Shown here piece by piece: positions 4,941 through 18,203 of a stretch of DNA of 64,000 nt. Position 1 is the first letter of the stretch. Each line of letters begins with the position of its first letter. Origin of the DNA: Candidatus Falkowbacteria bacterium. Its GTDB lineage: Bacteria; Patescibacteriota; Patescibacteriia; CAIXNZ01. The notes under the pieces are model-generated. The model was not told where the DNA came from. It was given only the letters and a program-made list of their open reading frames with translations, and did no database searches. The translations under genes and the position numbers were made by a program. Location of the stretch: NCBI GenBank assembly GCA_963774955.1, contig CAVZGV010000003.1:128771-192770 (forward strand). Reading direction: 5' to 3'.

Positions 4941-5013
4941 GGGCCTCTTCGTCTAGTGGCTAGGACGCATGGTTCTCATCCATGTAACAGGGGTTCGATT
5001 CCCCTAGGGGCTA
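4941..5013 (+). tRNA. tRNA-Glu (anticodon CUC)
   Basis: Hand-folded cloverleaf: acceptor GGCCTCT/AGGGGCT (2 G-U pairs), D arm GTC-TAGTGGCTAG-GAC, anticodon arm CATGG-TTCTCAT-CCATG, T arm AGGGG-TTCGATT-CCCCT. Aligns to E. coli tRNA-Glu. Confidence 0.75.
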
Positions 5014-5027
5014 TTATAAAAAGTTCT

Positions 5028-5094
5028 TCCGCCATAGGCGGACCCGCCTCTGGCGGGCATCCTGGTAATAGGGGTTCGATTCCCCTTGGCGGTA
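5028..5094 (+). ncRNA. degenerate tRNA-like element (tRNA 3'-half copy fused to a double GC hairpin)
   Basis: T arm identical to tRNA-Glu (AGGGGTTCGATTCCCCT). Acceptor-like pairing TCCGCCA/TGGCGGT. Only about 67 nt, with the D and anticodon arms replaced by two 6-bp hairpins (TCCGCC-ATA-GGCGGA, CCCGCC-TCT-GGCGGG). Confidence 0.3.
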
Positions 5095-5146
5095 TTAGCA
5101 ATATTTACTCTCAGACTCAAGGGTCTTTTTTTGTTTATTTGTAGCT

Positions 5147-5181
5147 TGACAAATGTGGTTTTTTTTGTTAAGTTTAGTTGA
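5147..5181 (+). promoter_or_regulatory. candidate sigma70-like promoter for the island operon (TTGACA-17-TAAGTT)
   Basis: TTGACA at 5147-5152 and a weak -10 after 17 nt. Followed by the nested hairpin at 5240-5270 and RBS AAGGGAGG. Confidence 0.3.
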
Positions 5182-5290
5182 TTCCCTGAAGAAGGGAAGA
5201 ATTTTGTTTTTTGATAAAAAAATAAGGATTTCAAAGACAACCCACCTACGCTCCTTTGGAGCTATGGTGGGTAAAAGGGAGGACAAGAAA

Positions 5291-5743
5291 ATGCCGTGTA
5301 ACATTGGTTATCGGGTGTATGCTCCGATCAAGATTCCGGCCCCAGTGCCCCAGGAATTCAAAAGCAGGACTGAGGCGCCGAAAATTGACGCTGAGCTTCT
5401 GGACAGATTAGGGGAATCAGATCCCGTATTCTGTGAGTGGCTCAAAGCCTTGGATATTAAACCTTTGCTGCAGCAGGCCCTGGAACGGGCTTTGACTAAA
5501 GTAAAAATTACCAAGACTCTGAAAGTTCAGATTTCTGATGCTGGCTATCTGGAGGCACAGGCCAGTTTTATTGGCGAGGCGCAAAAAGCCAAGCTGGAAA
5601 AATTGTCCGGCCAGGTCGCTTCCCAGTTTCAACTGGAAGTCATGAAAATGATTGCTGAGCTTTTGGACTATGAGACAGCCGTGACCGAAGATAAAAACGG
5701 CGGCTGGGTAATCGAAGGAGAAAAAAATGAGCAACGTTCATAA
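5291..5743 (+). CDS. hypothetical protein (island gene 1), helical
   Basis: Strong RBS AAAGGGAGG then ATG at 5291; the track ORF 5153..5743 extends upstream via an alternative start. Stop overlaps the next start (ATGA), indicating coupling. Confidence 0.5.
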   Translation: MPCNIGYRVYAPIKIPAPVPQEFKSRTEAPKIDAELLDRLGESDPVFCEWLKALDIKPLLQQALERALTKVKITKTLKVQISDAGYLEAQASFIGEAQKAKLEKLSGQVASQFQLEVMKMIAELLDYETAVTEDKNGGWVIEGEKNEQRS

Positions 5744-5960
5744 GTATCTGAAGATCAGCAAAAGTCCTGACGGGAAAGACGGCCTGGAATTTGAACATTT
5801 TGAAAGTCAGGAAGCTGCTGACCAGGAACAGGACAGGTTTGTTGCCTTGGCTCAGGCGCTGGGTCTGGAAATCAAAGTCAGCAAAGCCAGAAAAGGCGGA
5901 CAGCCGATTGCCGGCAATACAGTCCATAAGGATTTTCTACCCGGTCGCAATCGGACTTAA
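5727..5960 (+). CDS. hypothetical small protein (island gene 2)
   Basis: RBS GAAGGAG, 77 aa. Overlaps the upstream stop and sits 12 nt before the AAA gene. Confidence 0.45.
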   Translation: MSNVHKYLKISKSPDGKDGLEFEHFESQEAADQEQDRFVALAQALGLEIKVSKARKGGQPIAGNTVHKDFLPGRNRT

Positions 5961-5972
5961 GAGGAGAAGACA

Positions 5973-7928
5973 ATGACAGCGAAGAAAAAAGAAAGGTTTG
6001 AACCGGAGAATGCATTGCCGCTCGTGCCCATCTGGCTGAGCGAACAAATTATCTGTCCGTTTCAGTCGGGCATTGCCTCAGTTTTTCTGCTTCATGGCGA
6101 TATCGGAGGCCTGGTGGCTAATCCGGACAGGGAAGACGATCCGGATGAAGACAAATACATTACGCTGCCCGAATTTTTCCAGAGGATTTTTTCCGAAAGG
6201 GAAATGGTCATCTTCTATGACATCGCCAACGGTCTGCGCTTTTTGACGCCGGAAATGAAAAATATTTTCCGGCAAAAAGTCGGACTGGACAGCGCACCGA
6301 CAGGTTCTGCTGACGCAATTGCCGCGGCCAAAGCCCAGCTTAAGGCCAAACAGGCTCTGCCGCGTGATGTGGAAAGCTGCCTGCCCCTGATTGATAAGGT
6401 TTTGAAAACCATGAACAATGTGGCAGTCATTATCCAATCGGCTCATTTTATTGCGCCGACTTCAAGTGGTGTGGCCTTACCGCCTAACGAACGGGTTAAT
6501 ATTGAAACGCTGCGCAACTGGATTCAGTCTGCCAATATCAGGAAAAGTAAAAATGTGGTTTTGCTGCTGACTGACCAGTCGGCCAAAGTGAGCTCGGAAC
6601 TGCGGCAAAGCGGTTCGGAACTGATCACGGTTTTTATTCCCAAACCCAATTTTCAGGAACGGCTGGACTTTATCCAGTCAATCGCAGTCAACGCCGAGCA
6701 GGCGGAAGCTTTATTTAAGAGGCTGAGAGAGCACGAAAGCAAACTGAAAGGGCTGGGGCCGGCCTCATCCAAACGAGCTACTCTTGAATCTGAAGTTAAT
6801 GAGATTCAGGAAGCGCTCGATGAGCTCCCGATCGCCATCGATCTGCCCAAGGACTTTGATTCCAAATCCATGGCAGTGGCCACGCAAGGCATGAATCTGC
6901 GTCAGATCCGGGATATTTTCCTGGAAAGCTCCAAAAGCGGCAAAGCCATTGACCTGGATTATGTCCGCCGTAGAAAGCAGGATATTCTCAATAGCGAATA
7001 CGGGGATGTCATGGAAGTCGTGGAACCTAAACGCGGATTGGAAGACATCGGCGGCATGGAACACATCAAGGTTTATTTTTCTCGCGTGCTGTCAGCCATT
7101 CGCCAGGGTGAATCCCGGCTGGTACCTATGGGTATCACGCTGATGGGTCCGCCGGGTACTGGCAAAACAGCCTTGGTTGAAGCTCTGGCTTTTGAGGCCA
7201 AGTTCACTTTTGTTAAAACCAAAAGCATTCGTTCCATGTGGGTCGGCGAATCCGAAGCCCGTCAGGAAAAACTGATTTGGGGTTTGCGCGCTCTGGCGCC
7301 GGTCGTGGTCATGAATGACGAGGCTGATTTGAACGAAGCCAACCGCGACGCGCCCAAAGGCGATTCCGGAGTTTCCGAACGCCTGATGAAGATGTGGATG
7401 GAACTGCTGTCAGATCCGAAAATCCGTGGCCAGATCATTGTCATCAACTGCACCAACCGGCCTGACCGGATTGACGCGGCGCTCAAGCGCAGTGGACGCA
7501 GTGATGAAAGATTGCTTTTGCCCATGCCTTCACAGGCTGAGCGGGAAGCAATTTTTCAGGTGATGATCAAGCGGCATCAGATTCCGACCAGTTTGAAGGA
7601 GTTTTCGGGCTTTGCCCAAAGCACCTCTGACCTGTCCGGAGCTGATCTGGAAAACGTGGTCCTTCGCGCTTACAGCTTTGCAGCTGAAAAGGGTAAAAAG
7701 GTCATTGACGAAGAATGCCTGCAGGAGGCGATCAGGGATTTTATTCCCAGCGCCAGTCAGGAAGCGATTGACCGGATGACTTTGTACGGCTTGTCTGAAT
7801 GTTCTTCGCGCCGGCTTTTGCCTCCCAATGCCAAGGAAATCCTGATCAAGATCATGCAGCGTCGGCTGGTGCCTGAACAGGACGAAATCGTCGCGCTGAT
7901 CAAATCACGCAAGATCGTGGAGTTGTAA
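5973..7928 (+). CDS. two-domain classical AAA ATPase: degenerate N-terminal domain plus active CDC48/FtsH-clade domain
   Basis: Walker A GPPGTGKT, SxWVGESE, Walker B MNDEADL, second region of homology TNRPDRIDAALKRSGRSDERL. The N-terminal half has a P-loop-less relic VFLLHGDIGG. Confidence 0.85.
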   Translation: MTAKKKERFEPENALPLVPIWLSEQIICPFQSGIASVFLLHGDIGGLVANPDREDDPDEDKYITLPEFFQRIFSEREMVIFYDIANGLRFLTPEMKNIFRQKVGLDSAPTGSADAIAAAKAQLKAKQALPRDVESCLPLIDKVLKTMNNVAVIIQSAHFIAPTSSGVALPPNERVNIETLRNWIQSANIRKSKNVVLLLTDQSAKVSSELRQSGSELITVFIPKPNFQERLDFIQSIAVNAEQAEALFKRLREHESKLKGLGPASSKRATLESEVNEIQEALDELPIAIDLPKDFDSKSMAVATQGMNLRQIRDIFLESSKSGKAIDLDYVRRRKQDILNSEYGDVMEVVEPKRGLEDIGGMEHIKVYFSRVLSAIRQGESRLVPMGITLMGPPGTGKTALVEALAFEAKFTFVKTKSIRSMWVGESEARQEKLIWGLRALAPVVVMNDEADLNEANRDAPKGDSGVSERLMKMWMELLSDPKIRGQIIVINCTNRPDRIDAALKRSGRSDERLLLPMPSQAEREAIFQVMIKRHQIPTSLKEFSGFAQSTSDLSGADLENVVLRAYSFAAEKGKKVIDEECLQEAIRDFIPSASQEAIDRMTLYGLSECSSRRLLPPNAKEILIKIMQRRLVPEQDEIVALIKSRKIVEL

Positions 7929-7937
7929 AGGACGAAA

Positions 7938-7979
7938 GCCCCGCACCTCCCGCGTCGCGGGATGGTGCGGGGTTTTCTC
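7938..7979 (+). terminator. nested GC hairpin plus U-run between the AAA and vWA genes (attenuator or partial terminator)
   Basis: CCCCGCACC-[TCCCGCG T CGCGGGA]-GGTGCGGGG followed by TTTTCTC. Confidence 0.5.
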
Positions 7980-8010
7980 AGCATTAATCGGTAAACAAAG
8001 GAGGTAGAAA

Positions 8011-9030
8011 ATGGGTGGTCCTTCAGGTAAGTTTTATGACAGGGATGTGAGTGATAGAAGTAGCCGGACATCAAGCGGTACTTCTCAGGTTTCTGAAGAA
8101 GCCATGTCCCGCTCAAGAGTTGATGCCTCGCTTTTGCCCAAGGGACGGGAATTGGTCTGCAATGCCAAAAGTCCTTTGGTCTATGCTTTTGACGTAACCG
8201 GTTCAATGGGTAATTTGCCCAAGATCATTTATGACAAGATGCCCATGATTGCCGGACAGCTGGTGGAACAGGGTTATCTTGATGATCCCATGATCAGTAT
8301 TGCCGCTGTCGGCGACATCGAGTCGGATCTGGCACCTATTCAGATCGCGGATTTTTCTTTGATCCGCGCCCTGGATACCTGGCTGCAGAAGATCTGGCTG
8401 GAAGGCAATGGCGGCGGACAGGCCAAAGAATCTTATGAATTTACGGCCTATTTCTACGCCAGAATGTTCAAGATGCCCAAGGCAGTCACGCCATTTTTCC
8501 TCTTTACCGGAGACGAAGGTTTTCGGGAGGAATTGCTGGTCAATGACCTGAAAGCCCATTTTGGTGGAGAACATCAGAAAGTCAGCGCCTTTACCATTTT
8601 CGAGGAGCTCAAGAAGAAGTTCTTCGGCAATGTCTATCTGATCCATCGGAAATATGAGCGTTCGGAAAATGCCAGCATCGTCAGACAGTGGCAGGAAGCT
8701 CTGGGCAAAGAACGGGTGATTGATCTGCCCGAGGATCTGGCCATTGCCGATCTTACTCTGGGGCTTTTCGCAGTCACCGTCGGCGGTCGTACCCTGAAAG
8801 ATTACCTCAAGGAAATGAAGGAGAGGGAACAGACCGAAGACCGTATCAAGAAAGTCGGCAAGGCTCTGGAAGTCGTGGCCAGTCTGGCCAAGTCAAAGCC
8901 GGCTGACGCAGACGAGGAAAAAAATTCCGCGGCTGATGATGACGACGATAACAAGCCGACCAAGTCGGACAAACCAAAGCCGACTGATAAAAAGAAAAAA
9001 CCCGGCGGGAAAAAGCCCGGCCGGTTCTAA
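8011..9030 (+). CDS. von Willebrand factor A (vWA) domain protein with a charged low-complexity tail
   Basis: MIDAS motif in LVYAFDVTGSMGN (DxTGS). C-terminal D-rich then K/P-rich tail. RBS AAAGGAGG. Confidence 0.7.
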   Translation: MGGPSGKFYDRDVSDRSSRTSSGTSQVSEEAMSRSRVDASLLPKGRELVCNAKSPLVYAFDVTGSMGNLPKIIYDKMPMIAGQLVEQGYLDDPMISIAAVGDIESDLAPIQIADFSLIRALDTWLQKIWLEGNGGGQAKESYEFTAYFYARMFKMPKAVTPFFLFTGDEGFREELLVNDLKAHFGGEHQKVSAFTIFEELKKKFFGNVYLIHRKYERSENASIVRQWQEALGKERVIDLPEDLAIADLTLGLFAVTVGGRTLKDYLKEMKEREQTEDRIKKVGKALEVVASLAKSKPADADEEKNSAADDDDDNKPTKSDKPKPTDKKKKPGGKKPGRF

Positions 9031-9050
9031 GCTCTAAATTTTAGAGACTC

Positions 9051-9078
9051 AATCAGTTTGGGGCAACCCAAACTGATT
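9051..9078 (+). promoter_or_regulatory. perfect 12-bp stem with GCAA tetraloop in the vWA to PK-like intercistronic spacer
   Basis: AATCAGTTTGGG-GCAA-CCCAAACTGATT. Preceded by the small palindrome CTCTAAA-T-TTTAGAG. Confidence 0.45.
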
Positions 9079-9138
9079 CTACTCTGGAATTTATGGTAAT
9101 GAACATTGAAACTCAAAAAAATTAAGGAGGGAACAGAG

Positions 9139-10062
9139 ATGTCTAAGAGTGCCACGGTTAGAATCATGGCGACTTTAGCGCCTTATGTTGACCATCGGGC
9201 CGAAATCATCGGTCATCCTTTGGTTAAGGAATTGCGCCTGAATACGGTCATGCCCATTGCCGAGCCCAAACTGGAACTTCTGACTCGGCTCAAACATGAA
9301 TGCGGAAAAAAGAAGCTGTGGCTGGATCTGAAAACCAGGCAGCTGCGCATCACCAAATTCGCCTATCTGCCGTATGCCTATGTGGAACTCAGCCACAGAA
9401 TCAAGGTTGATCTGCCGGCCACGATCTACTTCAAAGATGGTACTGCCAAAATCGTGGAAATTTTCAACGGCAATAAGTTGATTTTGGCTGAACGGCCCAT
9501 GCGGGTTGTCGGCGAAGGCGAACCCGTCAATATTCTGGATCCGTCATTGCAGATTGAAGGTTTTTTAACTGACAATGATCGGGAATACGTAGCGGCGGCT
9601 AAAAAACTCGGATTGCATGATTACATGCTCTCATTCGTAGAAAGCGGTAATGATTTGCGGGAACTTTGGCAGCTTGATAATGAAGCCAAACCAATACTTA
9701 AGATCGAATCACTGCGCGGCTTGGATTTTTTGTCGAATTACCGTCAGGTTTTTCACACTAATATGCGCCTGATGGTTGCCCGTGATGATCTTTACATCAA
9801 CATGGGTGAGCAGAAAACAGATATGCTGCGCGCACTAGCCGCGATTATTAAAAATGATCCGCGGGCATATTGTGCCTCTCGGCTGCTGACTTCGTTGGAA
9901 GAAAAGGATGAAGTCGCCTTGCAGGATCTGTCTGATTTGCAGCTGATGCTGCTGTCCGGCTACCGGAGGTTTTTGCTGAGCGACATGCTGTGCTTTCACC
10001 ACGCGTCTTTTACCAAAACCATGGCCGTGCTCAGTGAATTTTTTCCGGGCGGGAGGTTCTAA
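9139..10062 (+). CDS. pyruvate-kinase-like TIM-barrel domain protein (PK/HpcH/PEP-utilizing superfamily) lacking PK C-domain
   Basis: KIESLRGLD...MVARDDLYINMGEQK resembles PK (S)KIENQEG...MVARGDLG. Start taken at the ATG after RBS AAGGAGGG; the track ORF starts 33 nt earlier. Confidence 0.5.
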   Translation: MSKSATVRIMATLAPYVDHRAEIIGHPLVKELRLNTVMPIAEPKLELLTRLKHECGKKKLWLDLKTRQLRITKFAYLPYAYVELSHRIKVDLPATIYFKDGTAKIVEIFNGNKLILAERPMRVVGEGEPVNILDPSLQIEGFLTDNDREYVAAAKKLGLHDYMLSFVESGNDLRELWQLDNEAKPILKIESLRGLDFLSNYRQVFHTNMRLMVARDDLYINMGEQKTDMLRALAAIIKNDPRAYCASRLLTSLEEKDEVALQDLSDLQLMLLSGYRRFLLSDMLCFHHASFTKTMAVLSEFFPGGRF

Positions 10063-11507
10063 TGCCCAAGAGTAAAGTTTTCATTGTTACGGATTTGGGC
10101 CTCGGTGACGCCGGTAAAGGTACTATCGTAGATTATCTGGCCCGGCATCATCCGGTTAAATCAGTAATCAGATTCAATGGCGGTCCGCAGGCAGCCCACT
10201 GTGTGGTCACTGCTGACGGCCGTCACCATGTCTTTGCTCAGTTTGGTTCCGGTTCTTTTTCCGGCGGGGTGGAAACTTTCTTGTCTGGCCAGATGCTGGT
10301 GGAACTGGAAAATCTGATGGTTGAAAATGAATACCTGATTGGGGCAGGCATTAAGGACGGCTTTGAACGTTTAACGGTTGATCCGTCTGCCTGTCTGGTT
10401 ACGCCGGCTCATAAAATGCTCGGTCAGCTCAAAGAAATCAAGCGCGGCTCAAAGCGCCTTGGTTCCTGCGGTATGGGCGTCGGCGAGGCTGCCAAGGATC
10501 GGGCTGATAAGTCTGCGATTACTGTCGCTGACTGTCTTGATAAAGCCGGTTTGAAAATAAAACTGGCCAGGCAATTTGAAACAAAGTTCCGTCAGGTACA
10601 GCCCCTGATGAAAGGCAATCGTTCAGCCAAGGCAGGCAAGCTTTATCACTATTTCCAAGAGCGCTTGAACCCTGTTGAGCTGGCTGAGATTTACCACGGG
10701 ATAGTTAGCCGTCTGCGCTTGGCGCCCTCGGCAAAATACCTGAGCCCCGGACAATTAAACGGCGCAAACCTGATTTTCGAAGGTGCCCAGGGTGTCCTGC
10801 TTGATCATGAATATGGCTTTTATCCCTATGTGACCAAAACCCGTTCGACCGGTCAGAATGCTTTGGCTTTATTGCAGTCAGCAGTCGACAGCATTGAGCT
10901 TGAAAAGTATTTTGAGATCAGTCGGGTCGGGGTGATCAGGGCTTATGGCCATCGGCACGGTGCTGGGCCGTTTGTCAGTGAAAGTCCCAGGCTGAGAAAA
11001 TACTTTCAGGATAAATTCAATCTGACCAATTCCTGGCAGGGAAAATTCCGGGTCGGCTGGCTGGATATGATTACTCTCAATTACGGTCTGTTCATCAACG
11101 GGGGAGTTGATTATCTGGCTTTAACCAATCTGGATCAGCTGAGCGGTTTGGCCAGGATCAAGGTCTGCGTGGCCTATAGCTACCAGGGCGATTTAAGTCA
11201 GCTGGATAAGTTCTTTATCTGGAAGAAAACCGGAGAAAATCAGGCCATAATCTATGCCATCAAAAAAGCTGATCCGCTTTTGATTGGCACTGGTCAATTG
11301 GCTGAACTGCTCCTCAGGTGTAAGCTGGGTAAGTGGCTGGAATTTCCAGGCTGGCAGCAGGATATTTCCCGGGTGAAAAAGCTGGCTGATCTGCCGCGCC
11401 AGGCTAGGGGATTTCTGACTTATCTGCAGAATCCGACGGCTTTGTATAAGCCGATCAAAATCATTTCAGTCAATGCGACTGAAGAAGGGAAAATATGGAT
11501 CGACTAA
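10062..11507 (+). CDS. divergent adenylosuccinate synthetase (PurA/PurZ-like) homolog
   Basis: P-loop GDAGKGT (PurA GDEGKGK), FEGAQGVLLD (FEGAQGTLLD), GAGPF, GWLD. GGHNAGH is changed to GGPQAAH, and TTGRRRR to NSWQGKFR. Start overlaps the upstream stop (TAATG). Confidence 0.75.
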   Translation: MPKSKVFIVTDLGLGDAGKGTIVDYLARHHPVKSVIRFNGGPQAAHCVVTADGRHHVFAQFGSGSFSGGVETFLSGQMLVELENLMVENEYLIGAGIKDGFERLTVDPSACLVTPAHKMLGQLKEIKRGSKRLGSCGMGVGEAAKDRADKSAITVADCLDKAGLKIKLARQFETKFRQVQPLMKGNRSAKAGKLYHYFQERLNPVELAEIYHGIVSRLRLAPSAKYLSPGQLNGANLIFEGAQGVLLDHEYGFYPYVTKTRSTGQNALALLQSAVDSIELEKYFEISRVGVIRAYGHRHGAGPFVSESPRLRKYFQDKFNLTNSWQGKFRVGWLDMITLNYGLFINGGVDYLALTNLDQLSGLARIKVCVAYSYQGDLSQLDKFFIWKKTGENQAIIYAIKKADPLLIGTGQLAELLLRCKLGKWLEFPGWQQDISRVKKLADLPRQARGFLTYLQNPTALYKPIKIISVNATEEGKIWID

Positions 11508-11533
11508 GCTCCGCTATGCGGAGCTTTTTATTT
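11506..11533 (+). terminator. rho-independent terminator closing the island operon
   Basis: AAGCTCCGC-TAT-GCGGAGCTT followed by TTTTATTTT. Confidence 0.65.
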
Positions 11534-11561
11534 TGGGGAGAAATTTTTGTCCCCAGGTTAT

Positions 11562-11589
11562 TTGACAGATTTCAGGGGCGTGCTATAAT
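11562..11589 (+). promoter_or_regulatory. near-consensus sigma70 promoter (TTGACA-16-TATAAT) upstream of the ArsR gene
   Basis: Exact -35 and -10 hexamers. Confidence 0.6.
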
Positions 11590-11616
11590 TTAGACAGTTA
11601 TCTAAATATCTAATAA

Positions 11617-11883
11617 TTGGCTATGAATTTACATAATACAATCTCTGCCTTGGCTGACCCGACCAGACGAAAAATTCTGGAGCTTTTAAAAAAAGAGGAT
11701 ATGCCTGCCGGCCAGATTAATAAGCATTTTCAGATTACGGCGCCGTCTTTGACCCATCATTTGAATATTTTGCGCCAGGCTGATTTGGTAACCAGCCAAC
11801 GGCAGGGGCAGGAAATTATTTATTCCCTGAATTTAAGCGTGTTTGAAGAAGTGGCTCAGGCGCTTATTAAATTTTTTCAATAA
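11617..11883 (+). CDS. ArsR/SmtB-family HTH regulator (SdpR-like)
   Basis: ALADPTRRKILELL...GQINKHFQITAPSLTHHLNILRQADLV is a winged HTH. Confidence 0.75.
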   Translation: MAMNLHNTISALADPTRRKILELLKKEDMPAGQINKHFQITAPSLTHHLNILRQADLVTSQRQGQEIIYSLNLSVFEEVAQALIKFFQ

Positions 11884-11924: not shown

Positions 11925-12599
11925 ATGTCTAATCCCATCAAGCCAAGTTTAAAAACAGAAATCATTCCGCTTCTTTTAATTATTATTTCTGTTGTGACTG
12001 CATTTTATTTTTATGCCAATTTCCCGGAACAGGTTCCTCTGCATTGGAATTTTAGCGGCCAGGTGGACGGCTGGGGCAGTAAAATTACCGGTGCCTTTGT
12101 TTTACCGATTGTAATTTTAGCAATGTACCTGATGTTTCTATTGATTCCTTATCTTGATCCGAAAAAAGATCGCTATGAACAATTTGTTAAAGTCTATCAT
12201 ATTTTTAAAAACTACCTCATAGGCTTCATGGTTTTGGTTTATTTGGTTACTGGGCTGGCCGGGCTAGGTTATGATGTGCCGGTCGGCATAATTATTCCGG
12301 TTGGCGTAGGCATTTTATTTATTTTGATTGGCAATTACATGGCCAAGATAAAAATGAATTGGTTCATGGGGATCAGAACACCCTGGACCTTATCATCCGA
12401 AGAAGTTTGGAATAAGACACATCGCATGGGCGGCAAGATATTTATTCTCGGCGGAGCTTTGATAATTTTGACTGGCTTTGCCCCTCTAAATTGGCGATTA
12501 CCCAGCTTTATTCTGACTATGATATTATTGGTATTTGGCACCATTGGGTATTCATATATAGTTTATCGCCAGGAAAAAAATAACAAATCAGTTCAGTAA
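11925..12599 (+). CDS. SdpI/YhfL-family membrane protein (DUF1648-SdpI-like)
   Basis: Multi-TM protein with the motif GIRTPWTLSSEEVWNKTHR. Paired with the upstream ArsR, as in sdpR-sdpI. Confidence 0.5.
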   Translation: MSNPIKPSLKTEIIPLLLIIISVVTAFYFYANFPEQVPLHWNFSGQVDGWGSKITGAFVLPIVILAMYLMFLLIPYLDPKKDRYEQFVKVYHIFKNYLIGFMVLVYLVTGLAGLGYDVPVGIIIPVGVGILFILIGNYMAKIKMNWFMGIRTPWTLSSEEVWNKTHRMGGKIFILGGALIILTGFAPLNWRLPSFILTMILLVFGTIGYSYIVYRQEKNNKSVQ

Positions 12600-13091: not shown

Positions 13092-14913
13092 ATGTCTTGG
13101 ATTTTAAATACTTTAAAGAAATTAGCTAAAAAGAAAAGTTTTTGGATTATTTTGGTTATTGCCATTATTGCAGTAATTCTTATTTTTAACGCGACTAAAG
13201 GCAAGAAAACTGTTTATACGATGGAAACGGTTAAACTGGGCAATCTAGTTCAGACAGTATCAGAAACAGGTACGGTGGAATCAGCTTCGGCCATTGATCT
13301 GAATTTTAAAGGCAGCGGCAAGTTGGTTGACTTGAATATTAAAGAAGGTGATCAGGTTGAAGCCGGTGATCTACTGGCGCGTTTGGATGCCGGAGCTTTG
13401 GAAATTGCCGTGCGACAGTCACAAGCTAATGTTGATATTGCTCAGGCTAATTTAAATAAATTATTGGCCGGCGCCAGCACGGAAGATCTTAAAGTTACCG
13501 AAGAGACGGTTAATAATGCCAGAATTGCTTATGCCAATGCCAAGAATAATTATGATAATTCTTTGTTGAAAATTGACGCTGAGACTACGACTTATGAGCA
13601 GGCAGTGACAGCAGCGCAAACAAGCTTGGATAATACTAAAAATTCTTATGATAAAACCGTGGCTGATGCCAGACAGAATTTACTCACCACTTTGCGCAAC
13701 AAAGCCAATGTGGCCAACACCAGCTTGGATTTTATTTATTACCAATATAATAATTTGAACAATGTCAGTGACCAACAGGCCAAGTCCAATACCCTCTGGT
13801 CATATAATTTAGCCATGGATAATAAAACTAAATTGGTTAATTATTTGAATAAATCAGACCAGTCCATGAGTGAAGATGAAATCAGTCAGGCGAGTGCGAC
13901 TGCCATTACTCTTTTTGAGCAAATTAATGACAGTTTAAACAATCTTTTTAATGCTATCAGCTCCTCTGTCATTGATGCCCGTTTTTCGCAAACTTTGGTT
14001 GATAATGCCAAGGCTTTAGTTAAGAGCCAGCAGGCTGCAGACAGCGCCAATTTGTTGGCTTTACAATCAGCTGATCAGGCCTATAAGACAGCCAAATTGA
14101 GTTATACCAGCGCGGTTGATAATGCGACTTCTAATCTGACCACAGCCCAAAATAACCTTAATTCCGTCTTGGCCAATAAAGATGTTTCTTTGGTTTCCGC
14201 CAAAGCGACTTTGGATTCTGCTTTAGGCGCCTATAATCTGGCCCAGGCTCAATTGGCCTTCAAAGAGGCTAAACCCCGACAGGTGGATATCTCTTATTAT
14301 CAGGCTCAGGTAAATCAGGCTGTGGCTGCCAGAGATTTAGCTTTGAACAATTTGAAGGATTATGTTATTTATGCGCCTACAGACGGAGTGATTACTTTTG
14401 TAAATTACAAATTAGGCGAGCAAATCGGTATGGCTACGACTGCAAAACCGGCAATTGCCATTATTGGCAATAGTGATTTCCAGATTAAAGTTGATGTGCC
14501 GGAATCAGATATTATTAAAATTAAAGTCGGTAATGAAACCAATATCACGTTGGATGCTTATGGCAGTGACATTATCTTTAAGGGTAAAATAATATCTATT
14601 GATCTGGCTGAGACTGTGATTCAGGATGTGGTTTATTACAAAATTACTGTGGAACTGGAGCCGACTGACAAGGAAATTAAATCCGGCATGACTGCCAATG
14701 TCGATATTATCACGGCTACCGTCGAAAATGTTCTGTATTTATCGAACCGTACGATTAAAACAAGATACTGACGGCCAAAAATATGTGGAAGTTAAAAAAT
14801 TTGGCGGTGGAGAGGAAATAATTAATATTGAAATCGGCATCAGGGCTGATACCGGTACAGAAATTATAAGCGGTTTAAAAGACGGCCAGGAGGTGATTGT
14901 TTCTAAAAAATAA
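13092..14913 (+). CDS. HlyD/MacA-type periplasmic adaptor of an ABC efflux system; C-terminus frameshifted near 14760
   Basis: TM anchor, long coiled coil, beta-barrel (YVIYAPTDGVITFV). The C-terminal lipoyl-like segment DTDGQKYVEV...GLKDGQEVIV continues in the +1 frame (track ORF 14698..14913). Confidence 0.6.
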
Positions 14914-14922
14914 TAATACTGT

Positions 14923-15651
14923 ATGGAGAAAAAAGTACTAATAAAATTAGACAATCTTAAAAAAGATTATGTTAATGATGAAGTGGTTACCCATGTTTTG
15001 AAAGGCATTAATTTGGAAATTAATACAGGGTGAATTTGTGGCTATTATGGGTCCGTCCGGTTCAGGTAAATCAACGCTGATGCATATCATGGGTTTTTTG
15101 GATAAGCTGACTACTGGCAAATATTTATTCAAAGGTAAGGATGTTAGTAATCTGTCTGATGATGAATTGGCTGAAATCAGAAATGAAGAAGTCGGTTTTA
15201 TTTTTCAGGCTTTTAATCTGCTTACAGCGTACCAGTGTTTATGATAATGTGCGTTTGCCTTTGACTTATAGCAATAAAAAAATTTGATAAAGATAAAGTC
15301 ATTACTGCCATTAAATCAGTTGGTTTGTATCATCGTTTGAATAATTTATCCAATCAGCTTTCCGGCGGTGAAAAACAAAGAGTGGCGATTGCCCGCGCTT
15401 TGGTCAATGATCCGTCAATTATTTTTGCAGATGAACCGACCGGTAATTTGGATTCCAAATCCGGCAAACAAATCATGGAGATTTTGCAGGATTTAAATGA
15501 AGAAGGTAAAACTATTATTTTAGTTACTCATGAAAAATATACGGCAGAACATGCCCGCAGGATTATTAAAATCGTTGACGGCGAAATTATCGATGATTAT
15601 CAGGTTAAAGAGCGCTTGATTGCCAGATTAGAAAAAGATTTAACCAAATAA
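14923..15651 (+). pseudogene. MacB/LolD-type ABC ATPase, at least 3 frameshifts
   Basis: Walker [10 protein letters not shown] in one frame, [15 protein letters not shown] and the D-loop in another. Stops between fragments. Confidence 0.7.
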
Positions 15652-15654
15652 TTT

Positions 15655-16880
15655 ATGGAATTGGCTTCTAGCTTAAGAATTGCTTTTACCGGTTTGAAGT
15701 CAAAAAAGACCCGAACATTTTTAACAATGCTCGGGATTATTATTGGCATTTCTTCGGTTATTATGATTATTTCCGTAGGCGCCGGTGCTCAAAGTTTGAT
15801 TTTAAATCAGATTAAAGCTTTGGGTTCAAATCAAATTTCAATTTTTCCTGGTGCTTCAGAAGAATCAGGTCCGCCACCCAGTGTTTTTGGTTCAGCCAAT
15901 ACCAGTTTGAAAATTGATGATATGGAGGCTCTTGATAAACGTCAAAATGTGCCCAATGTCGTGGCTGTTACTTATTATGTCCGTGGTACTGGCTACCATG
16001 ATTTGGCAGGACAATGAATATAACGGTACTTTTGTGGCCACTACAGCCAGTTATCCGGTTGTTCATGATATTAGCGTGGCTGAAGGTCGTTTTATTGATT
16101 CAGATGAGGAAAAAGATCTGGCCAAAGTGGTTGTTTTGGGCGCCAACGTTAAAGCAAGAACTTTTTGGTGATAGCAGATCCTTTGGGTCAGATGATTAAA
16201 ATAAAAAAACATCAGTTTCGGGTTATTGGCGTTATGGCTAAAAAGGGGACTTCTGGTTTTGAAAATCAGGATAATTATGTTTTTATTCCGATTTCAACCG
16301 GCCAAAAAATAATGTTAGGTATTGATTATGTTTCCTTGGCCAGGGTCAAAGTCAATTCGCAGGATAATGTTGATCAGGCAGTTGAGGATATTAAGGCTGT
16401 TTTGCGGGACAGACATAATTTGGATCGCAATGAACTGGATGATTTTACTGTTCGAGCCCAGGCTCAGGCTATTGAAATTTTTTCTTCAATTACTGATTCT
16501 TTAACTTATTTTTTGGCAGCTATTGCCGCGATTTCACTTTTGGTCGGCGGTATCGGTATTATGAATATTATGCTGATTAGTGTGACTGAAAGAACCAGGG
16601 AAATCGGCTTAAGAAAAGCTTTGGGCGCCAAAAGATACAAATATTTTGCAGTCAATTTTTAATTGAATCAATTGCCGTAACTTTGGCCGGCGGAATTATC
16701 GGTATTATTTTTGGATTAGCGGTTTCTTTTTTAGTGGCTTTGATTGCCAGACAGTTGGGTTATGATTGGGATTTGTCATTTCTATTTTCCTCAATATTTT
16801 TTCCTGTACAATTTCCATTTTAGTCGGTTTATTTTTCGGCCTTTACCCGGCCTTCAAAGCCTCGAGAATTAAATCCGATT
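15655..16880 (+). pseudogene. MacB-type FtsX permease copy 1, multiple frameshifts
   Basis: N-terminal TM (TFLTMLGIIIGISSVI), MacB periplasmic domain pieces, and C-terminal FtsX helices spread over 3 or more frames. Confidence 0.6.
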
Positions 16881-16942
16881 GACAGGCTTTGCAATATGAA
16901 TAATATTGGTTAATTAGTTTATTAGTATAATTGGTTATTAGA

Positions 16943-18203
16943 ATGTTTAGAGAATACAAAAATCAATAGAAATAGCCAGGCTGCGATTATACGCCATAAA
17001 TTGCGGGCTGTTTTGACGATTTTGGGCATCACAGTCGGTATTACTGCGGTGATTGTGGTTTTATCTGCTGGTAAAGCAATTGAAGTTATTTATTACTAGC
17101 CAGGTAACTCAGTTTGGCACTGATTGGGTTGAGGTTGAAGTTAAAGTTCCGGCAACCGGCCATGCTTCGCTGGAAAATGCCGGTGGTATGGCTCAGGGCA
17201 TTACCATTACGACCATAAAAGAAAAAGATGCAGAGGAAATTAAAAAGTTTCCAATATTACTGATGTCTATGCCGGTATCAGTCGGCCAGGAAGTTGTGAC
17301 TGTATGAAAATAAAAATAAGATAGCCATGATTTTTGGCGTGACTGAAGGTTTTAGTCGAGTGGATACCGGTGAAATAAATGAAGGACGATTTTTTACTGA
17401 AGCAGAAGATAAGGGCTTGGCCCGGGTGGTAGTTTTAGGCAGTAAGCTCAAAGAAACTTTGTTTGGCGACGAAGACGCTATCGGTAAAACTATTAAAATT
17501 AAAAAATATAATTTTAAAGTAATCGGGGTGATGGCCGAGCGGGGTAGTGCCGGTGTTTTTTCCATGGATGATTTGATTATTATGCCTTTGCGAGTCTTTG
17601 CAAAAATTGATTCAGGGTATTGATTATGTCTCGTTTATTATTGGCAATATGAAGGATAAGTCTTTGGGGAGGAGACGGTTGATGATTTGACTTTATTTAT
17701 TGCGCGATCTACATGATATTACTGATCCTAGTCTGGATGATTTTGCCGTCACGACAGCTGATCAGGCCATGGATATGATTGGATATTATTACCGGGGCGA
17801 TTAAAATTTTACTTTTATGCTCTGGCCTCGAATTTCCTTGGTTGTCGGTGGGGTGGGGATTATGAATGTCATGTACGTTTCAGTGGCTGAACGTACTTTT
17901 GAAATCGGTTTGCGCAAGGCCTTGGGCGCAAAAAATGCTGATATTCAAAGCCAGTTTTTAACTGAAGCCGTGTTTATCACTTTTTTGGGCGGTATCTTTG
18001 GTATTATTTTGGGGGTGTTTATAACCTGGCTAATCAGCTATGTGGCCACTAACTTTTTAAATTTTGACTGGCAGTTTTATTTTTCAATCTCATATTTACT
18101 TTTAGCTTCCGGCATTTCTATTTTTGTGGGATTGGTTTCCGGCCTGTACCCGGCGCGCGCAGCCGCGAATTTGGATCCGATGGTGGCGCTGAGGAAAGAA
18201 TAG
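16943..18203 (+). pseudogene. MacB-type FtsX permease copy 2, multiple frameshifts
   Basis: LRAVLTILGITVGITAVIV N-terminus, periplasmic-domain fragments (track ORFs 17053.. and 17327..) and an intact C-terminal FtsX piece at 17817..18203. Confidence 0.6.

Follow-up and report, generated by a model that had tools for sequence, protein, structure and literature searches.

Two of the enzymes considered here have well-described counterparts in E. coli. PurA carries the motifs G-A-T-T-G-R-R-R-R and I-G-T-T-G-R, and PykF, a canonical pyruvate kinase (PK), has a regulatory C domain. NAD reconstitution pathways of phages (bioRxiv 10.1101/2024.02.11.579819; PMC13464706) set a precedent for counter-defence by rebuilding nucleotides. 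In a 64-kb stretch of DNA from a Candidatus Falkowbacteria bacterium (64,000 nucleotides, hereafter the window), relatives of PurA and PK are encoded together with a vWA protein and an AAA ATPase, and no published description of this module was found in the literature. The locus is best explained as a rare but conserved accessory operon, acquired recently, whose core is a MIDAS-containing vWA protein with a truncated PK-like enzyme. Its relatives in bacterial and archaeal NAD-synthesis operons and in large phages suggest an undescribed regulated route that rebuilds adenine nucleotides.

The island (5291–11507) is a single co-oriented gene block directly 3' of a tRNA-Glu gene (Table 1). Its GC content is 49.8%, against 39.2% in the remaining window and 39.4% for the chromosome, and 461 other 6.2-kb intervals had a mean of 39.4%, a standard deviation of 1.3% and a maximum of 42.1%, which places the island ~8 standard deviations out. 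Codon usage is not uniform either, GC3 being 0.50–0.59 in the island genes and 0.31–0.45 in the flanking genes. A GC-richer block that begins after the tRNA and ends at a terminator had been noted in the first-pass annotation, and windowed GC bears this out. Because GC lies 8 standard deviations off and GC3 is shifted, the island must have been acquired horizontally, as had been proposed; its PK-like protein is also 58–61% identical to PK-like proteins encoded at loci of ~70% GC in Planctomycetota and Myxococcales. In most other carriers the GC of the cassette is host-like.

Table 1. Features of the island and its edges, with coordinates in the window.
Feature	Position	Strand	Evidence or remark
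tRNA-Glu (anticodon CTC)	4942..5013	+	ARAGORN; Rfam RF00005 58.7 bits; left edge of insertion region
tRNA-like remnant, acceptor-like stem and T arm, without D arm	5030..5106	+	direct repeat, folding
N-terminal two thirds of 227-aa alpha+beta protein, 150 aa, split gene	5291..5743	+	aligns to homologue residues 1-150
C-terminal third of same 227-aa protein family, 77 aa	5727..5960	+	overlaps preceding ORF by 17 nt
Tandem AAA ATPase, 651 aa	5973..7928	+	PF00004 90 bits, residues 389-517
Strong intergenic hairpin, AAA/vWA spacer	7931..7979	+	-40.4 kcal/mol, z -5.8, then UUUUC
Cytosolic vWA protein, 339 aa	8011..9030	+	vWA fold by modelling
Second strong intergenic hairpin, vWA/PK-like spacer	9031..9097	+	-33 kcal/mol, z -5.2
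Truncated pyruvate-kinase-like TIM barrel, 307 aa	9139..10062	+	PF00224 33.4 bits (cut-off 30)
Divergent PurA-like GTP-type ligase, vWA-linked 'WQG' clade, 481 aa	10062..11507	+	PF00709 253 bits
Intrinsic terminator, closes operon and GC-rich block	11506..11533	+	9-bp stem, 6 GC pairs, then TTTATTTT; fold 11506-11526 and T run
ArsR-family HTH	11617..11883		genuine gene, host composition
SdpI	11925..12599		genuine gene, host composition

Housekeeping genes flank the island: ArsR, SdpI and HlyD lie downstream, and PBP2 and MurF lie on the opposite side. The SdpR/SdpI-like pair reported downstream is present as an ArsR-family regulator and SdpI, but it is host DNA outside the island and does not belong to the system. 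An integrase or flanking direct repeat was looked for around the island and none was found, in agreement with the first reading as to the integrase. The 3' half of the tRNA-Glu gene is duplicated (4977–5025 and 5058–5106, a direct repeat 80% identical), and the tRNA-like remnant was called by neither ARAGORN nor Rfam. Adjacency to a tRNA, which had been noted here, is not a family trait across the related loci.

The six ORFs amount to five functional units, the first two encoding halves of one protein. The 'two small proteins' announced earlier belong to one family, which most other genomes encode as a single fused protein (222–228 aa), with the conserved N-terminal motif MPC(D/N)IGY; two close relatives also have the 150-aa ORF. 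This first ORF starts at 5291 behind the ribosome-binding site AGGGAGG and not at 5153, as the database gene call agrees, and it had no match in Pfam, NCBIfam, PHROG or PADLOC. The genes are as tightly coupled as had been described: in addition to the overlap of the first two ORFs, GAGGAG lies in the 12-nt gap ahead of the AAA gene, and the PK-like and PurA-like genes meet in a TAATG overlap. Hairpins occupy both long spacers. The one between the AAA and vWA genes was equalled in stability by 0 of 200 shuffles and also gave a terminator-like match; it is a putative internal attenuator or RNA-stabilising element.

The domain calls for the AAA, vWA, PK-like and PurA-like proteins were all upheld by profile, structure-database and modelling searches. 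'Two-domain AAA' is correct insofar as an AAA-like but degenerate N-terminal half, without the Walker A lysine, precedes an active classical Cdc48/VAT-D2-like module at residues about 343–601, which matched the D2 domains of VAT, Cdc48 and p97 in the PDB (E 1e-54). The two halves align with each other by hhalign (probability 74%, E 2.7e-5), in register across the sensor and lid region. The vWA protein has no Pfam match, and its fold is predicted at high confidence, with a complete MIDAS site (D61-x-T63-G-S65, T166, D168) that is invariant; the tail at its N terminus (MGG..YDRDV) is conserved, and the C-terminal one is disordered and rich in Lys and Asp.

In the PK-like enzyme the B domain is shortened and the C domain of PykF is absent, and the catalytic and metal residues are present: R32, N34, D66, K68, R73, K220, E222, R244 and D246 of PykF are invariant, and T278 is Ser. 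Its ATG start at 9139 follows AAGGAGG by 8 nt, and the database gene call is likewise 307 aa. It falls far under the cut-offs of the NCBIfam PK models, at about a tenth. Of 185,579 species genomes only 112 carry the gene, and a set of 1.84 billion proteins contains 278 representatives of the family. The PurA-like ligase scores 213 and 199 bits with the NCBIfam purA models (cut-offs 402 and 396) and 65 bits with the PurZ model (cut-off 300); the PurZ-diagnostic Ser is Asp, and the earlier statement that this is not the PurZ/DatZ/MazZ cluster stands. The GDxGKG motif with the catalytic Asp is kept in 35/35 cellular and 31/31 viral sequences, as are, on mapping to E. coli PurA, the equivalents of His41 and Gln224 and the guanine-specifying Asp of TNLD. 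Where PurA has its two motifs given above, the PurA-like ligase has x-[WFY]-Q-G-x-x-R and G-S-C-G-x, respectively. Replacements affect the aspartate loop and two ligands of the IMP phosphate, and the residues for GTP and phosphotransfer are present.

Patescibacteria have a minimal nucleotide metabolism, the 64-kb window holds no other PurA or PK homologue, and the Pfam families are those of PurA and PK, all of which would fit plain housekeeping purA and pyk genes in a reduced genome, odd only in appearance. We give this hardly any credence, given scores that reach roughly half of the curated cut-offs for PurA and a tenth of those for PK, the replaced ligands, the missing C domain, the foreign GC and GC3, the scarcity of the PK-like gene and its coupling to a vWA gene (72/81 loci). 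With GC so far off, a rare family and scores under the curated cut-offs, the operon is not housekeeping.

This coupling emerged from a neighbourhood survey of 81 loci that encode a PK-like protein, 79 of them in GTDB species genomes and the other two in phage genomes, across bacteria, archaea and phages. With few exceptions the vWA gene immediately precedes the PK-like gene in the same orientation, and the conserved core is vWA then PK-like. It is not the AAA/vWA pair that had been named as the chassis, as an AAA ATPase occupies the regulator slot in 10 loci and a Ser/Thr kinase (STK) in 30, with the 227-aa protein in 8. Both AAA and the 227-aa protein are confined to a minority variant. NadE occupies the ligase slot in 34 loci, with the glutaminase domain retained, and a PurA-like ligase does so in 31; NMNAT lies upstream in 40, usually with the NadE type. 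The function had been expected to centre on nucleotides, and relatives are indeed embedded in NAD-synthesis operons: PncB-PncA-Nudix-PnuC-NadR-NMNAT-STK-x-vWA-PK-NadE-NadB-ARH-NADK in an archaeon (L031), NrtR-NMNAT-STK-vWA-PK-PurA-ARH-PncA in a member of the Parcubacteria (L048) and STK-vWA-PK-PRPP synthetase-NAD kinase at a third locus (L085). The window-type variant (227-aa protein, AAA, vWA, PK, PurA) has no NAD gene within 8 kb at any such locus, hence its link to NAD is by family association only.

We tentatively read the operon as a phosphoenolpyruvate-powered, vWA-regulated module that would rebuild adenine nucleotides or NAD, which is quite possible if short of probable. Judging by its conserved catalytic residues, the PK-like enzyme would turn NDP into NTP (GTP or ATP) with phosphoenolpyruvate. 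Residue mapping suggests that the PurA-like ligase would spend GTP in phosphorylating IMP or a closely similar 6-oxopurine-type nucleotide and swap the oxygen for an amine; because the aspartate loop is replaced, free L-aspartate in its classical binding mode is probably not the donor. The vWA protein is the hub of the module, and strict gene adjacency and the covariation of its tail with ligase type suggest that the ligase may need it as an obligate partner and be switched by it, via the MIDAS and/or the N-terminal aromatic-acidic tail. From the mutually exclusive gene content, this switch would be worked here by the tandem AAA unfoldase and the split 227-aa protein, and by the kinase in other variants. 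The net effect would be that adenine nucleotides are supplied or rebuilt under regulation by a module that powers itself, in parallel with the sister operons, which have the same vWA-PK core between NMNAT and NadE and would rebuild NAD. For NadE-type operons 'NTP supply' is an incomplete rationale, because PK cannot turn the AMP derived from NadE and NMNAT into ATP.

All 25 NadE-partnered vWA proteins start MYSW..D, while 48 of 51 PurA-partnered ones start MG..[YWF]D and 0/51 MYSW; this could be mere co-inheritance of two subfamilies. It would also fit a ligase (PurA-like, or NadE in sister operons) that acts on or through the vWA tail, for instance by joining purine C6 to its terminal amine in a protein-nucleotide conjugate to be processed by the AAA ATPase or kinase. 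Such chemistry is in our view very improbable. In its favour are the strict adjacency of the vWA and ligase genes and a tail that is conserved from Met1 onwards and whose class tracks ligase type perfectly; Met removal from the Met-Gly starts would leave an N-terminal Gly, and the ligase has lost the Arg that binds the aspartate beta-carboxylate as well as its Thr-Thr pair; hadacidin, a glycine derivative, is a classical ligand of the aspartate site in PurA. However, one window-type homologue starts MAKDSYDRDV and so has no Gly2, the glutaminase domain of the NadE partners implies free ammonia as the nucleophile, the aromatic-Asp motif is explained equally well as a MIDAS ligand, and the tail covariation may be phylogenetic.

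Phage records gave 220 vWA-like and 240 PurA-like matches, ~200 of each from cluster C mycobacteriophages. In Tonenili the kinase (gp106), vWA (gp105) and PurA-like (gp104) genes are neighbours, and vWA and PurA-like genes are also adjacent in Vibrio phage Va1 and Rhizobium phages. The PurA-like gene immediately follows vWA in 30 of 31 IMG/VR viral contigs, with a kinase before vWA in 12, and many vWA-bearing contigs are 100–500 kb long. One 139-kb contig has STK-vWA-PK-PurA, and a 485-kb phage carries DnaJ-STK, vWA and PK beside an ADP-ribosylglycohydrolase. The PK-like gene hardly occurs in phages, with one instance in 2.9 million IMG/VR contigs and one in 50,697 phage records. Since phages almost always carry vWA and PurA-like genes without it, PK is dispensable for the ligase.

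The near-universal pair in cluster C mycobacteriophages, its recurrence in other phages and viral contigs, the gene content of the 485-kb phage and the foreign composition of the window copy are consistent with a phage-type counter-defence or takeover module, domesticated or left by a mobile element, that restores ATP or NAD pools drained by abortive-infection systems such as NADases, ATP nucleosidases or adenosine deaminases. The PurA-like ligase would re-aminate IMP-type products, the PK-like enzyme recharge NTPs, and vWA with kinase or AAA sense or gate. The chemistry overlaps with that of the adenine nucleotide or NAD module; the beneficiary would be the invader rather than the cell. This origin is rather unlikely: phage structural, integrase and replication genes are absent around the island, most cellular cassettes match host GC and reside in NrtR-type NAD operons, PK-like is almost missing from phages, and neither the AAA N-terminal half nor the 227-aa protein has a phage counterpart.

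A role in defence or toxicity had also been suspected, in which the PurA-like and PK-like enzymes, switched on by an AAA/vWA sensor, would produce a nucleotide that is modified, is toxic or serves as a signal. The patchy cross-phylum distribution and recent transfer, the ligase's remodelled substrate pocket, which would suit an unusual product, and the swapping of regulator (AAA or STK) and ligase (PurA-like or NadE) genes, a hallmark of conflict systems, agree with it. It is nevertheless a distinctly unlikely role, and not one of a named defence system, as the first pass had recognised: PADLOC was silent on the vWA, PurA-like and small proteins, and its weak AAA matches to the IetA and TRIP13 models cover the generic ATPase core only. 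The operon has no effector (nuclease, pore former, NADase or protease) and no defence-gene neighbours in the window, most carriers have it at host-like GC, relatives form part of biosynthetic NAD operons alongside NMNAT, NadE, PncAB and NrtR, and the vWA and PurA-like pair is itself phage-borne. Two general observations run counter to the metabolic reading: plain metabolic enzymes do not usually have an obligate adaptor, and the AAA, vWA and Ser/Thr kinase domains are common features of NTP-dependent conflict systems too.

The six ORFs at 5291-11507 make up a real, recently acquired operon, which belongs to a conserved and undescribed family of vWA-centred nucleotide-ligase modules found in cells and in large phages. 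The first-pass annotation had reported a switch to GC-richer sequence beside tRNA-Glu, and windowed composition bears this out: sliding GC rises from 0.35-0.41 to 0.47-0.55 across approximately 5000 to 11500, then falls back to 0.36. The island as a whole has a GC content of 49.8%, against a mean of 39.4% (sd 1.3%, maximum 42.1%) in 461 other 6.2-kb windows of the same 64 kb, and GC3 is also raised (0.50-0.59 in the six island ORFs vs 0.31-0.45 in flanking genes). In most carriers of related cassettes the GC of the cassette equals that of the host (difference <0.05), hence the excess of 0.10 seen here marks a recent transfer into this lineage. The tight coupling of the ORFs described from the sequence is present as well (a 17-nt overlap, a 12-nt gap with GAGGAG and a TAATG overlap), as are the hairpins in the two long spacers, both of them strong, and the terminator. 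Coordinates are collected in the table.

Features of the island and its immediate surroundings, in window positions
Feature	Position	Strand	Remarks
tRNA-Glu(CTC)	4942-5013		
tRNA-like element	5030-5106		diverged copy (80%) of the 3' half of tRNA-Glu at 5058-5106
227-aa protein, first part	5291-5743	+	150 aa
227-aa protein, second part	5727-5960	+	77 aa
AAA ATPase	5973-7928	+	651 aa
Hairpin	7931-7979		-40.4 kcal/mol, z -5.8, then UUUUC
vWA protein	8011-9030	+	339 aa
Hairpin	9031-9097		-33 kcal/mol, z -5.2
PK-like protein	9139-10062	+	307 aa
PurA-like ligase	10062-11507	+	481 aa
Terminator	11506-11526		

Both flanks have host composition, with housekeeping genes upstream (an SPFH protein, PBP2 and MurF) and an ArsR-type HTH protein, SdpI and HlyD/MacB remnants downstream. 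The flanking genes, like the nearest homologues, look patescibacterial. The MacB/FtsX-type ABC transporter 3' of the HlyD-like gene (14771-18203) consists of many short same-strand ORFs, with MacB_PCD pieces at 15655-16017 and 16165-16662, an FtsX piece at 17817-18203 and no intact ATPase ORF, and looks like a decaying pseudogene cluster. The tRNA-like element has an acceptor-like stem, a T arm and a short GC hairpin, lacks a D arm and is not callable as a tRNA; it may be the scar of an earlier integration or excision at tRNA-Glu. A classical tRNA-targeting integrative island was rejected, as no integrase-like ORF was found around the island, no direct repeats flank it, and the tRNA adjacency is not kept in relatives. 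A prophage remnant was also rejected: the flanks carry no phage genes, and neither the N-terminal half of the AAA protein nor the 227-aa protein has a phage or BFVD counterpart. Structured RNA families in the spacers were likewise dismissed, the only Rfam match being tRNA.

To place the operon among its relatives, homologues of 20 gene families were tabulated in 81 loci with the PK-like gene, 79 of them from GTDB species genomes and two from phage genomes. A vWA gene is found in 72/81, nearly always directly upstream of the PK-like gene on the same strand; an NMNAT-like gene is found in 40, NadE in 34, the PurA-like gene in 31, a Ser/Thr kinase (STK) in 30, the AAA ATPase in 10 and the 227-aa protein in 8. 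The commonest architecture is NMNAT-(STK)-vWA-PK-NadE, and a second is (PRK-like kinase)-STK-vWA-PK-PurA-like. The third, 227-aa protein-AAA-vWA-PK-PurA-like, is that of the window and recurs in nine further species (four Myxococcales, two Planctomycetota, one deltaproteobacterium and two Falkowbacteria), with the split form in Saccharibacteria. Across the loci, the PurA-like gene alternates with NadE, and the AAA gene with the STK gene. In small-genome organisms, Pfam annotation of the neighbours places the block within NAD operons. An archaeal MAG (L031, 1817-18112) carries the 14 genes PncB-PncA-Nudix-PnuC-NadR-NMNAT-STK-unknown-vWA-PK-NadE-NadB-ARH-NADK, where ARH is an ADP-ribosylglycohydrolase; a Parcubacteria genome has NrtR-NMNAT-STK-vWA-PK-PurA-ARH-PncA, and a nanoarchaeon has STK-vWA-PK-PRPP synthetase-NAD kinase. 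The island is most safely placed among nucleotide or NAD salvage/reconstitution operons, with a new PurA-like subfamily. Even if it proved to be only a salvage operon, NAD operons would share a general feature that calls for explanation, a vWA-PK core inserted between NMNAT and NadE, which is found in dozens of genomes.

The island ligase shares its fold and family with PurA (EC 6.3.4.4), scoring 253 bits against PF00709 (gathering cut-off 27) and matching PDB PurA chains down to E 1e-38, while it scores below the curated PurA equivalogs (PRK01117, 213.5 vs 402; TIGR00184, 198.7 vs 395.55). The residues that serve GTP binding and phosphotransfer are kept, namely the P-loop GDxGKG with Asp13 and Lys16, His41, Gln224 and the guanine-specifying Asp333 of (T/N)KxD, with Asn in place of Lys331; the roles given for these E. 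coli PurA residues are taken from the established structural literature. Changed, by contrast, are the nucleophile loop and the IMP-phosphate ligands. In place of the aspartate loop (Thr300, Thr301, Arg303, Arg305), W-Q-G-x-F-R is found in 35/35 cellular and in the aligned viral members, so that G-A-T-T-G-R-R-R-R-T-G-W of E. coli reads N-S-W-Q-G-K-F-R-V-G-W in the window protein. The IMP 5'-phosphate ligands T128-T129 are Ser-Cys, the second a near-invariant Cys (G-S-C-G); the Arg143 position is variable across the clade and Lys in the window, and there are two insertions relative to PurA. The Asp P-loop, the [WFY]-Q-G motif and G-S-C-G are common to all PurA-likes, viral and cellular, which form one clade that is always linked to a vWA gene; this linkage sets it apart from PurA. 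Plain housekeeping purA and pyk genes, with which the Pfam families agree and the equivalog scores and the remodelled pocket do not, are a highly improbable explanation. At one Myxococcales locus (L004, 10924-15285) the PurA-like ORF runs on for ~970 residues with a bacterial Ig-like (Big_5) domain, giving 1453 aa; this was set aside as uninformative, being possibly a real fusion, a frameshift or a gene-call artefact.

To our knowledge, PurA chemistry has so far been represented by only two enzymes, PurA itself and the Z-genome enzyme PurZ. PurZ and PurZ0 resemble the island ligase in being phage-borne PurA paralogues, and the PHROG of the window protein (phrog_1211) has a PurZ-style name. PurZ has Ser where PurA has Asp13 (bioRxiv 10.1101/2025.10.22.683976); the window protein reads GDAGKG at this site, and Asp is found in 66/66 relatives. 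The NCBIfam PurZ model gives 65.1 vs 300 bits, and domain searches found none of the companions datZ, mazZ and dpoZ in any of the six island ORFs. On these three grounds a PurZ or Z-genome cluster was rejected, in agreement with the first-pass annotation, which had set the operon apart from the PurZ/DatZ/MazZ cluster. In a 2026 survey of phage PurA homologues, non-PurZ sequences serve as an outgroup only. The locus defines a third coherent PurA clade, with a remodelled nucleophile pocket and an obligate protein partner.

The PK-like protein, 307 aa long vs ~470 in pyruvate kinase, has the TIM-barrel A domain (PF00224, 33.4 vs a cut-off of 30). Every catalytic, Mg and PEP residue is kept: R32, N34, D66, K68, R73, K220, E222, R244 and D246 of E. 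coli PykF are invariant in the family, and the proton donor Thr278 is present as Ser. Unlike pyruvate kinase, it has no C-terminal allosteric/tetramerisation domain, ending at the equivalent of PykF residue ~345; its B domain is reduced by ~35 residues, and other residues stand in place of the K+ ligands S36 and T67. Against the PK equivalog models its scores lie below threshold (31 vs 306 and 41 vs 432 bits). The family is small and distinct, with 262 homologues among 5.8 billion clustered proteins, 278 representatives among 1.84 billion, and presence in 112/185,579 GTDB species genomes. Its hosts are Patescibacteria, Chloroflexota, Acidobacteriota, Planctomycetota, Myxococcota, Spirochaetota, DPANN archaea and Methanosarcinales. 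The window protein is 58-61% identical to Planctomycetota and Myxococcales proteins, whose loci have ~70% GC.

The first two ORFs are two parts of one protein of 222-228 aa, which is fused in most other genomes. Two close relatives (83-86% identity) have the 150-aa split form as well, and a Saccharibacteria genome (L025, 5390-5400) splits the protein at the same residue as the window (5727-5743); in all four the site reads …EGEK(N/H)E followed by MSNVHKY…. The nucleotide context differs: the window has an A7 run there and the Saccharibacteria genome does not. The shared split in relatives, and its different nucleotide context in Saccharibacteria, argue for an inherited split and against a sequencing error; the sequences would fit either a conserved split or recoding. 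In the 651-aa ATPase, a single active AAA module of the classical type (residues ~343-601) resembles D2 of VAT, Cdc48 and p97 (E 1e-54). The ATPase belongs to the classical clade, with PF00004 and AAA_lid_3, and its best PDB matches are VAT, Cdc48 and p97 D2. When its two halves were compared by hhalign, the N-terminal one matched the sensor and lid region of the C-terminal one in register (probability 74%, E 2.7e-5). The N-terminal half lacks the Walker A lysine, so the protein is a dead-plus-live tandem AAA protein.

The 339-aa vWA protein had no sequence match in Pfam, NCBIfam or PDB. Its predicted fold is the vWA alpha/beta fold, and the vWA domains of BchD and NorD are among its structural matches. 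The MIDAS motif DxSxS...T...D is present, with D61, T63, G64, S65 and D168 invariant and T166 in at least 90% of 47 sequences, and D.[TS]GS is seen in most relatives. Conservation begins at the very first residue (N-terminal peptide: GGPSGKFYDRDV). NadE-partnered proteins start with MYSW(D/G)xD in 25/25, while PurA-partnered ones, cellular and viral, start with MG(G)...[YWF]-D in 48/51 and with MYSW in 0/51; the window protein starts with MGGPSGKFYDRDV. The class of the tail follows the type of ligase, a pattern that co-inheritance alone could produce. An aromatic-Asp motif is a typical MIDAS ligand, as in the logic of integrins and their ligands. By analogy, that of the tail could be a MIDAS ligand, or equally a ligase docking peptide, a kinase substrate or a handle for the AAA motor. 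That the ligase is protein-directed, with the vWA tail as its target, would sit well with the tail-ligase pattern; co-inheritance would yield the same pattern, and we consider this explanation improbable. A longer vWA form (475-532 aa), with an N-terminal extension of ~170 residues, occurs at nine loci (L015, L016, L018, L028, L029, L048, L051, L058 and L070); the two members scanned (L048 and L070) had no Pfam match, and a regular expression did not find the MIDAS motif in this form.

Both the vWA and the PurA-like protein also occur in phages. Searches with the vWA-like protein gave matches in 220 phage records, among them 201 of Mycobacterium, 10 of Rhizobium and 6 of Vibrio phages, and those with the PurA-like protein in 240. 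In phage Tonenili the gene order is Ser/Thr kinase (gp106), vWA (gp105) and 'PurA-like' (gp104), and in Vibrio phage Va1 the vWA gene is followed by an 'adenylosuccinate synthase'. In IMG/VR, 31 viral contigs carry the vWA gene; the PurA-like gene is directly next in 30/31, the remaining contig ending there, and a kinase lies upstream in 12/31. One of these contigs (139 kb) reads STK-vWA-PK-PurA, and the PK-like gene is otherwise nearly confined to cells. The trio of cluster C mycobacteriophages (Bixzunavirus) has the gene order of the island, a vWA protein of the same family (31% identity over 57% of the query, E 9e-24) and a ligase of the same PurA-like clade (39% identity, MWQGKFRQGHLD motif), and differs from it in lacking the PK-like, AAA and 227-aa proteins. 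The trio is annotated solely as hypothetical protein, kinase and PurA-like, and literature searches found no functional study of it. The clade is thus carried, under the labels 'PurA-like' or 'hypothetical protein' only, by >200 sequenced mycobacteriophages and many uncultured large phages. NAD and ATP depletion, and their reconstitution, are a central battleground of phage-bacterial immunity. A counter-defence module on the phage side is consistent with this carriage, and less so with the PK-like gene being nearly confined to cells and with the cellular NAD operons; we regard it as unlikely. In the uncultured 485-kb phage LR745208.1 (L001, 6794-15155), a DnaJ domain is fused to the STK directly upstream of vWA and PK-like genes; these are followed by genes for a Thg1-like tRNA-His guanylyltransferase, an HNH endonuclease and an ADP-ribosylglycohydrolase.

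Paired AAA and vWA proteins are known from several machines, including the MoxR-vWA pairs RavA-ViaA, CbbQ-CbbO and NorQ-NorD, the Mg-chelatase BchI-BchD, Rea1/midasin, and Cdc48/proteasome with Rpn10. The island likewise pairs the gene of an ATPase ring with an adjoining gene for a MIDAS-vWA adaptor, and by analogy the vWA protein may dock on a client enzyme which the ATPase remodels or activates. It differs from the MoxR-vWA pairs in that its ATPase, whose first domain is dead, falls in the classical Cdc48/VAT clade and outside MoxR (AAA_3/AAA_5), and from these machines generally in that the AAA protein is optional, most members of the family having an STK instead, and in that the presumed clients are nucleotide ligases. 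Membership in any listed named defence system was rejected, in line with the first-pass annotation, which had recognised no named defence operon. In PADLOC-DB 2.0 the vWA, PurA-like and small proteins had no match, only the AAA core matched the IetA and TRIP13 models, as a generic AAA protein would, and the PK-like protein had one weak match to a candidate model (PDC-M11A, E 0.0028). A defence system that produces an unusual nucleotide would agree with the changed ligase pocket; set against these searches and the NAD-operon context, it is distinctly unlikely.

There are also parallels in NAD metabolism. Like NARP1-3, the family consists of small gene sets common to phages and cells, with the theme of rebuilding an adenine-containing cofactor, and its sister operons hold NMNAT, NadE, PncA/B, PnuC, NadR and ADP-ribosylglycohydrolase. 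NARP3 is composed of PnuC and a NadR-like protein (PMC13464706). None of the domains of the NARP-defining enzymes (Adps and Namat; Nampt and NMNAT; PnuC and NadR-like) was found in the island, and NARPs as described have no vWA, PK-like or PurA-like proteins. The closest literature is the prediction by Iyer et al. 2022 (PMC9503650) of ARG-centred NrtR/vWA systems that counter viral ADP-ribosylation, in NAD/ADPr-linked operons combining NrtR-type regulators, an ADP-ribosylglycohydrolase and a vWA 'peptide-binding chaperone'. ARH and NrtR do recur near the vWA-PK core, but ARH is found in only 3/81 loci and is absent from the window, and pyruvate kinase, PurA and adenylosuccinate do not occur in that paper; it is a different system. 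Full-text literature searches found no description of a module of vWA, PK and PurA-like/NadE.

Through the neighbourhoods of its family, the clade is linked both to NAD and adenylate metabolism and to the way in which CPR and DPANN organisms manage their nucleotides, which is poorly understood. In the mechanism we propose, the PK-like enzyme would make NTP from PEP, and the PurA-like ligase would use GTP to activate a 6-oxopurine-type nucleotide and aminate it, with a donor other than aspartate bound in the classical pocket. The vWA protein would bind and gate the ligase, a gate that would be flipped by the tandem AAA ATPase and the split 227-aa protein here, and by the Ser/Thr kinase elsewhere. 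Together these steps, which we put forward tentatively as a real possibility, would supply adenine nucleotides in a regulated and self-powered manner, as a counterpart to the NAD synthesis of the sister operons. A bolder joint reading, unlikely to hold as a whole, is that the 'WQG' PurA-likes are a new enzyme class which, with the PEP-driven PK-like enzyme and the vWA switch, constitutes an unrecognised adenylate/NAD reconstitution system. In a GTP-dependent reaction, these ligases would aminate or amidate a nucleotide, and the nucleophile would be something other than free aspartate. It might be ammonia, converting IMP to AMP in one step; or the reaction would be NaAD to NAD, as an analogue of NadE in the same operon slot; or the nucleophile would be the N-terminal amine of the vWA partner. 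Either an AAA unfoldase or a Ser/Thr kinase would operate the vWA switch, and the system would be common to CPR bacteria, DPANN archaea, several large-genome phyla and hundreds of large phages. Each island protein is small and soluble-looking, and the enzymology is directly testable.

Three minor observations concern individual loci. In the archaeal MAG L031, the gene of a second PRK-like kinase is found on the opposite strand; next comes a gene for the large subunit of RuBisCO, which suggests a link to the archaeal AMP/nucleotide-salvage RuBisCO pathway. A PHP-domain phosphoesterase (~296 aa) is encoded just upstream of the module in three unrelated loci (L021, 5000-5890; L026, 7991-8884; L084) and may be another accessory component. 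In a Saccharibacteria MAG (L009, 883-7728) the core is amplified in tandem, in the order NMNAT, vWA, vWA, PK, PurA-like, vWA, PK, and the third vWA protein has a different tail class, MSES..DY, the same as that of the 485-kb phage LR745208.1.
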